A model generated the notes under the pieces. The model saw only the letters and a list, made by a program, of their open reading frames with translations. It ran no database searches and was not told the origin of the DNA. This document shows positions 4,962 to 5,185 of a DNA stretch of 64,000 nt, piece after piece. The position numbers and the translations under genes are program-made. How positions within the stretch are numbered: the first letter of the stretch is position 1; each line of letters begins with the position of its first letter. Source of the DNA: Nitrospirales bacterium. GTDB taxonomy: Bacteria; Nitrospirota; Nitrospiria; Nitrospirales; UBA8639. The stretch lies in the NCBI GenBank assembly GCA_963555755.3, contig OY820905.2, forward strand, positions 1,952,001 to 2,016,000. Direction: 5' to 3'.

Positions 4962-5185
4962 CTGTCTCCCAACCTTGTTGATACGGGCTTGGTGTCCCAG
5001 GCAACCGTTCGGGTTCATCAGAGAAAGGGCATGACGACCTGCGCTGAGTCACGGGCTGATTCCCATAGGGCAAACGGTCTATCATGCCAGGATTCACAAT
5101 ACCGTGAGGGTACAGCCTTTTCCCTACGTTGGCTATGCCCTCTTCAGACAAGAGGCAGCTCGTGTGAGTTGGACTACAACCCTTC
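4962..5185 (-). ncRNA. predicted IS110 bridge RNA (target-binding loop ~5028-5088, donor-binding loop ~4968-5013)
   Basis: Stem-enclosed guides: LTG GTTTGCCCT (5075-5067) and RTG GACTCAG (5050-5044) match the target; LDG ACGGTTGC (5008-5001) and RDG ACAAG (4978-4974) match the donor ACGGTTG-CT-TGTAT. Transcript ends are approximate. Confidence 0.8.

Follow-up and report, generated by a model that had tools for sequence, protein, structure and literature searches.

The described systems nearest to the locus reported here include IS621 of E. coli, with its 177-nt bridge RNA (PMC11208160, PMC11208158, PMC13626964; PDB 8wt6), and ISCro4/IS622 (10.1101/2025.05.14.653916; PDB 9t56), whose enzyme is 88% identical to that of IS621 and works in human cells. 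In the accessible part of PMC11208160, guides with zero to two mismatches and longer right guides are reported among orthologues, and a short repeat of 2–3 bp flanking the donor is described for the IS621 type. Other relatives include ISPpu10 and ISPpu9 of Pseudomonas putida, REP-targeting IS110 elements with a CT core that insert into many copies of one intergenic palindrome, and the IS1111 group, characterised by subterminal inverted repeats of approximately 11–13 bp located 7 and 3 bp from the ends (10.1101/2024.04.26.591405).

The window analysed here, by which we mean the whole 64,000-nt stretch of the Nitrospirales contig, very probably holds an intact IS621-type IS110 insertion sequence, the left end of which is predicted to encode a bridge RNA directing the recombinase to GCATGCC-CT-GAGTC in a multicopy intergenic repeat. 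Direct support for this reading comes from the ends, the CT cores, the catalytic residues, the single target, 72 empty sites and the covariation of the stems and of guides with target and donor. An initial annotation had proposed such an element with readable guides; the motifs that it quoted all lie on the minus strand where it placed them, and the presence of the catalytic residues and the strong covariation bear out its reading of an intact element with a predicted left-end bridge RNA. It mentioned neither the target repeat nor the target-completed stop codon. The element and its junctions are as follows:

3987..5198, minus strand: IS110 element, 1212 bp between two CT cores, defined by the common ends of 11 complete copies and by empty sites
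5199..5200, minus strand: left CT core (12 identical left junctions)
3985..3986, minus strand: right CT core, whose T opens the transposase stop codon
5201..5207, minus strand: left target half GCATGCC, within a dispersed repeat
3970..3984, minus strand: right target half GAGTC and the remainder of a hairpin module
3983..4957, minus strand: IS110 recombinase, 324 aa, with D13/E57/D99/D102 and S237; its stop TGA consists of the core T and target GA

The recombinase, read from the ATG at 4957 on the minus strand, scored above the cut-offs of Pfam PF01548 (DEDD_Tnp_IS110) and PF02371 (Transposase_20), and thus has the RuvC-like DEDD domain and C-terminal Tnp domain of the IS110 family; against the NCBIfam IS110 model (NF033542) it reached 209 bits for a cut-off of 140. 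A sequence search of solved structures in the PDB returned two matches only, ISCro4 (E 7e-37) and IS621 (E 5e-35), and D13, E57, D99, D102 and S237 align with the catalytic motifs of IS621, while the nearest named protein relatives are from Nitrospirota. ISCro4/IS622 is therefore the best PDB match, with the same RNA architecture and CT core, in relation to which the present recombinase is a distant orthologue. The element is flanked by GCATGCC-CT (5207-5199) and CT-GAGTC (3986-3980), and the occurrence of CT at both of its ends and a single CT in empty sites corresponds to site-specific insertion at a short common core. Its non-coding left end spans 241 nt and its reading frame overlaps the right end. 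Assignment to the IS1111 group was rejected: the long non-coding right end carrying the RNA is not present, and an 8-bp inverted repeat, set 14 and 17 bp in from the ends, lacks conservation.

A search of the 4.62-Mb genome gave 13 matches to the element, of which 11 are complete, one lacks the right end and one lacks the left three quarters, with all 13 inserted in the same target at the same base of a small dispersed repeat. The left junction was GCATGCC-CT in 12/12 cases and the right junction CT-GAGTC in 12/12. Every copy with a left end (12/12) retains the open frame, the five catalytic residues (DEDD and S) and the same target guides; eight copies are 1–10 bases apart and the remaining copies 21–107. 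The initial annotation had reconstructed the insertion site as GCATGCC-CT-GAGTC, and in its empty form this 14-mer has 72 occurrences in the genome (0.03 expected), so that the reconstructed target is real. These empty sites follow the same repeat end in 71 of 72 cases and carry the right arm of a hairpin in all 72, and 7/72 fall within long open frames, which make up 68% of the genome. The target site proved to be an optional 24-bp module of a 120–150-bp intergenic, multicopy repeat with inverted ends:

5207..5223, minus strand: left inverted end of the host repeat
3947..3961, minus strand: right inverted end of the host repeat, whose interior is seemingly deleted in this copy
14087..14232, plus strand: unoccupied target repeat elsewhere in the window, its core at 14109-14110

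There are 272 copies of the inner palindrome of the host repeat and 236 end-bounded units, comprising 162 without the module, 51 with it, 12 with another module and 11 holding the element. In a comparison with ERIC, the host repeat gave a weak match in E. coli genomes (41 bp, 80%, E = 6), and as regards the TA expected at both ends of an ERIC-like repeat, no duplication was found at 182 of the 236 units. No autonomous partner of the repeat turned up when 38 long end-bounded stretches were roughly scanned. To the right of the element the host repeat covers just 38 bp (window 3947-3984), its interior seemingly deleted between two CGAAGG copies, leaving 73 bp between the end of the element and the start of the next gene, which points the same way. 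A small hairpin, CCTGAG-N4-7-CGAAGG, is present in 181 copies in the genome, 67 of them with the loop used by the element, and hairpins of similar form are targets of homologous elements, many in Chloroflexota.

With a host repeat that has inverted ends and about 270 copies, and with every element copy inside it, it could be argued that the copies multiplied as passengers of the repeat or through inter-repeat recombination, rather than by one-by-one transposition, the guides being a relic. We regard this as extremely unlikely: the surrounding repeats vary in subtype and length whereas eight element copies differ by only 1–10 bases, frames and guides are intact in 12/12 copies, and the close relatives L002, L004 and L186 lie outside this repeat with matching changes in their guides.

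Under the preferred reading, that of an RNA-guided recombinase, the parts of the predicted RNA are as follows:

5089..5184, minus strand: subclade-specific 5' extension of the predicted RNA, of conserved length and with no conserved fold
5177..5184, minus strand: arm of an 8-bp inverted repeat (partner 4004-4011), present and not conserved
5028..5088, minus strand: target-binding loop with its stems
5067..5075, minus strand: left target guide GTTTGCCCT, with an invariant first G and a proximal TGCC-CT that matches the target
5044..5050, minus strand: right target guide GACTCAG, 7/7 complementary to CTGAGTC
5042..5043, minus strand: target-loop handshake bases CG, of which C would pair with the G at donor position 7 (model from the accessible part of PMC11208158)
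4968..5013, minus strand: donor-binding loop with its stems
5001..5008, minus strand: left donor guide ACGGTTGC, 8/8 (the motif as first quoted runs 5008-5000)
4974..4982, minus strand: right donor guide ATCAACAAG, 9 nt, which in the IS621 geometry would pair with seven donor bases around a 2-nt bulge
4972..4973, minus strand: donor-loop handshake bases GT, of which G would pair with the C at target position 7

Within the target loop, on the minus strand, the stem arm runs from 5088 to 5076, the hairpin from 5066 to 5051 and the closing arm from 5039 to 5028; the start of the RNA probably lies near 5184, judging from the -10 box. Guide matches read earlier were reproduced, at 7/9 for the left target (plus one U-G wobble), 7/7 for the right target and 8/8 for the left donor. 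RNA folding and covariation across left ends had been named as a check by the initial annotation. The single-sequence fold of the RNA region was no better than that of shuffles (z = -0.80), and the unconstrained ensemble shows pairing between parts of the guides. In contrast, an alignment of 37 homologue sequences yielded a two-loop structure with 95.4% of cells paired, in which 18 of 25 stem pairs show compensatory change (0/500 shuffles reach this, and slid controls gave 33–51%), the structure having been derived from the very alignment on which it was scored. As the lone sequence folds no better than shuffles, the case for the RNA structure is comparative. No Rfam family reached its gathering score over 3500-5600 (5 chance matches). 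A target-loop stem (CATGCC) that resembles the left target was rejected as an alternative guide, because the same stem occurs in L002, L004 and L186, which have other targets, and elsewhere shows compensatory change.

Covariation between guides and targets was scored on loci from a genome collection (77) and from relatives (12) together with the present one, 90 in all. Missing ends, missing anchors, deleted loops or duplication removed 29 of these and a missing junction or anchor a further 10, leaving 51 loci with 37 guide types. Across the 37 types, the five non-core bases of the right guide matched their own right target at 4.46/5 (2.33 when shuffled) and the left guide at 4.94/7 (3.38 when shuffled), with 0/5000 shuffles reaching either value; the left guide was scored at the best of three registers, real and shuffled alike, and the right guide of L084, mis-parsed by the pattern, was kept in and lowers the score. 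A metagenome set, limited to the best 80 of 208 loci (47 parsed, 36 types), gave 4.54 against 2.40 shuffled for the right guide and 4.90 against 3.22 for the left (0/3000 shuffles), the two sets sharing some elements (e.g. L105/L002). These permutation tests take related elements as independent, and the significance is consequently overstated. The absence of guide/target covariation among homologues had been named at the outset as what would speak against a bridge RNA; the covariation found is strong in both data sets. It can also be followed on the protein tree, which holds 35 of the 37 types: the sisters L008/L029 and L014/L015 (both starred) and L001/L002 (96/78) change guide and target together, each pair differing in one right-target base with a matching change in the guide, and the near-identical copies L012/L022 of one genome show a likewise matched change. 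In one Dehalococcoidia genome, L064 and L066 do not have the 5' half of the target loop, yet are inserted at the family target, which suggests that they moved with RNA supplied in trans. In L025-L027, two CT-TGTA junction-like motifs lie 14 bp apart at the left end.

The strength of the match varies along the guides, with rates by position of 0.30, 0.54, 0.68, 0.79, 0.88, 0.83 and 0.92 in the left guide and 0.81–0.95 in the right. The left guide had been read as 9 nt; of this, the matched part is TGCC-CT in the main, whereas the three distal bases are weakly matched and the opening G, invariant in homologues, is probably scaffold. In most types this G is followed by seven bases and the core; here and in the nearest relatives the number of bases is six. 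Where near relatives carry other guides (L004, L186), matching is mainly at four or five core-adjacent bases. Since distal left matches are weak, since the two left mismatches to the used target are kept in L103, L188 and L199 (relatives using the same repeat), and since no genome site matches the left guide fully, target recognition probably comprises 4+2+5 bases, namely four on the left, the core and five on the right.

These distal mismatches, together with the position of the core in an arm of a small hairpin (CCCT-GAG...CGA-AGGG), raise the question of whether guide pairing, though real, is insufficient, and whether the DNA hairpin surrounding the core is additionally read by the recombinase, as for ISPpu10, where a structural gate is described in the accessible part of 10.64898/2026.03.19.712850. 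The right arm of the hairpin is indeed present in 72/72 empty sites and 13 of the 37 guide types insert in similar hairpins; the other 24, however, use no such hairpin, and the hairpin of ISPpu10, which targets a different repeat, lies 5' of its core whereas that of our element spans it. Moreover, 77 empty sites have five left matches that include TGCC, and 72 of these come from the repeat, so that the confinement of all insertions to the repeat needs pairing only: the probability of 13/13 insertions in the repeat from pairing alone is about 0.5, falling to about 0.06 when all 92 sites with at least five matches are counted, and a structural gate is not indicated by the site counts here. We consider the additional reading of a hairpin unlikely, and do not rate it lower because of the ISPpu10 precedent.

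Guidance by pairing at the target leaves the donor to be considered. In 48/51 loci the left donor guide is identical to the right end of the element, in four variants, and it is exact in 43/47 loci of the metagenome set; this match is partly built in, guide and end having both been located with similar patterns. The handshake base, which follows the right donor guide and for which the model in the accessible part of PMC11208158 predicts pairing with target position 7, agreed with that position at 0.97 (0.71 when shuffled, 0/5000; 37 types), and more weakly in the metagenome set, with 42/47 loci paired and Watson-Crick pairs in 2/7 non-C targets. The right donor guide has the IS621 layout, with an A at position 161 that would pair. 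A model in which the target loop is the sole guide and the protein reads the donor ends, the donor-loop match being incidental, draws on the shorter target-matching RNA (seekRNA) of ISEc21, as given in the accessible part of 10.1101/2024.04.26.591405, and on the small variation of donors, so that donor covariation rests on few types. Against it, each of the four donor variants is mirrored in the left donor guide (48/51 loci), the donor-loop stems are compensated and the donor-loop handshake base tracks the target; we judge such a protein-read donor to be very improbable.

For a bispecific RNA with both loops in use, a promoter would be formed on joining of the ends, which spell TTGACT-17-TATAAT as in IS621:

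5191..5196, minus strand: -10 box TATAAT of the predicted circle-junction promoter, with its function taken from IS621
4000..4005, minus strand: -35 box TTGACT, separated by 17 nt from the -10 box after joining of the ends, with a likewise presumptive function

By analogy with IS621, from which we infer RNA production, excision and strand exchange, rare excision would join the element ends into a circle (reported as single-stranded for IS621 in the accessible part of 10.64898/2026.08.31.748434), and this junction would drive an RNA of about 220 nt and the recombinase message. Pairing would then occur between the target loop and both target strands and between the donor loop and ACGGTTG-CT-TGTAT, the DEDD/Ser site would exchange strands at the cores, the handshake bases would favour insertion, and the inserted target would complete the recombinase stop codon. 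No circle or empty-site joints were found for the locus in the contigs of 8 of 24 listed runs, where rare forms are dropped in assembly; contigs of two RNA runs span the element, and carry no information on strand, ends or level. One perfect copy of the 14-nt donor junction (0.03 expected) occurs apparently inside a gene (G000:C1:735341-735354) and is a possible donor-like off-target site. The copy at G000:C1:344222 has lost 6 bp of the linker immediately ahead of the donor loop, with guides and frame intact. An 82-bp remnant of a related left end (G000:C1:2215827-2215908, 78% alike), with the other left target CCTGTC-CT, appears from its sequence to be a 14th trace, derived from a differently programmed relative.

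Two further features had been singled out by the initial annotation, namely extra 5' hairpins and 8-bp subterminal inverted repeats. The extension itself is real, at 190 nt from the left end to the donor guide against 94–175 nt in 46/51 loci, and marks a subclade of L016, L001, L002, L004 and this element (100/100 in the protein tree; 189–190 nt); the hairpins, however, are not conserved (consensus of -2.2 kcal/mol over 10 sequences), and the extension is nearly absent in relatives with 94–98 nt. Similarly, the inverted repeat exists at 4004-4011 and 5177-5184, and was rejected as a subterminal repeat of the family given its position 14 and 17 bp inside the ends and its lack of conservation: 80/5000 shuffles reach 8 bp, 2/51 loci do so and the closest relatives reach 6, 6, 4 and 4 bp. 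The short repeat of the family is instead the 3 bp flanking the 14-nt donor, matched at 3/3 in 32/51 loci and at 2/3 in this element (five loci including this one were read by eye), where the departing base creates a perfect -10 box.

The recombinase frame runs through the right end of the element and finishes on the core T and target GA, an arrangement found in this element and in 8/51 loci of two lineages. On the circle, the frame would remain open for 81 codons, to a TGA overlapping the start, in 11/12 copies (79 codons in one), and 2.6% of shuffles are open. Among relatives, the read-through frame shuts early in L016 (30 codons) and L186 (33), and it is open in 4/6 read-through types against 32% of frames in 31 other types; variation by codon position (34/25/39) did not support a coding constraint on it. 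It is conceivable, and in our view quite unlikely, that the subclade ties its recombinase to its target, in that insertion at CT-GA would end the protein at 324 aa and the circle would read through the bridge RNA, as a switch between circular and inserted states or a check on insertion, in an element that would also naturally combine the long right guide and extra donor pair engineered into IS621.

In comparison with IS621, our element shares the DEDD and Ser recombinase, the CT core, the long left end and the predicted junction promoter, the order of target then donor loop, the 8-nt left donor guide, the split 9-nt right donor guide and the handshake bases, and insertion into a multicopy intergenic repeat. 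It differs in its target and donor, in a left end of 241 nt (191 in IS621), in a target loop two bases shorter between stem and core (as compared with oligonucleotides), in a reading frame that crosses the right end and is closed by a stop supplied by the target, and in two natural features, a right target guide of seven bases and a base at donor-guide position 161 that would pair, both of which correspond to engineered changes reported, in the accessible part of PMC13626964, to raise IS621 insertion. The natural IS110 set of PMC11208160 includes the same donor-loop scaffold and, with at least 95 and 158 occurrences in supplementary files 4 and 5, the same donor junction motif; the donor type is thus already present, within the accessible part of that source, in the data set that defined bridge RNAs. 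In the searchable part of those supplements, four element-specific strings had no match and a fifth matched the loop of another element. A literature search combining IS110 with Nitrospira, bridge RNA, extragenic palindromes, ERIC or stop-codon read-through brought up no work dealing with this element; its scope stopped short of the list of 72 orthologues in 10.1101/2025.05.14.653916.

Elsewhere in the window, a minus-strand operon (697-3913) holds genes for an NTP transferase, a PhnW/AepZ-like aminotransferase and split alpha/beta subunits resembling phosphonopyruvate or sulfopyruvate decarboxylase, all below NCBIfam cut-offs; it is a candidate phosphonate or sulfonate pathway. Two short minus-strand genes at 9409-10005 are, judging from their translations, presumably a pair resembling the HigB/HigA toxin-antitoxin system, and a 792-aa open frame on the plus strand (10289-12667) combines a DruA (Druantia) domain with a DDE_Tnp_1 transposase domain.

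Few orthologues of bridge recombinases have been tested, although they are sought as editing tools. The element described here is a well-supported new member of the IS621-type bridge recombinases that leaves the known mechanism unchanged; it is compact, intact in 11 recent copies and fully readable in its target and donor, and by sequence it already has features that raised the insertion of IS621. In Nitrospirota, its predicted guide RNA would exploit a repeat family as a safe landing site, of which 72 empty copies are left where new jumps could be watched.
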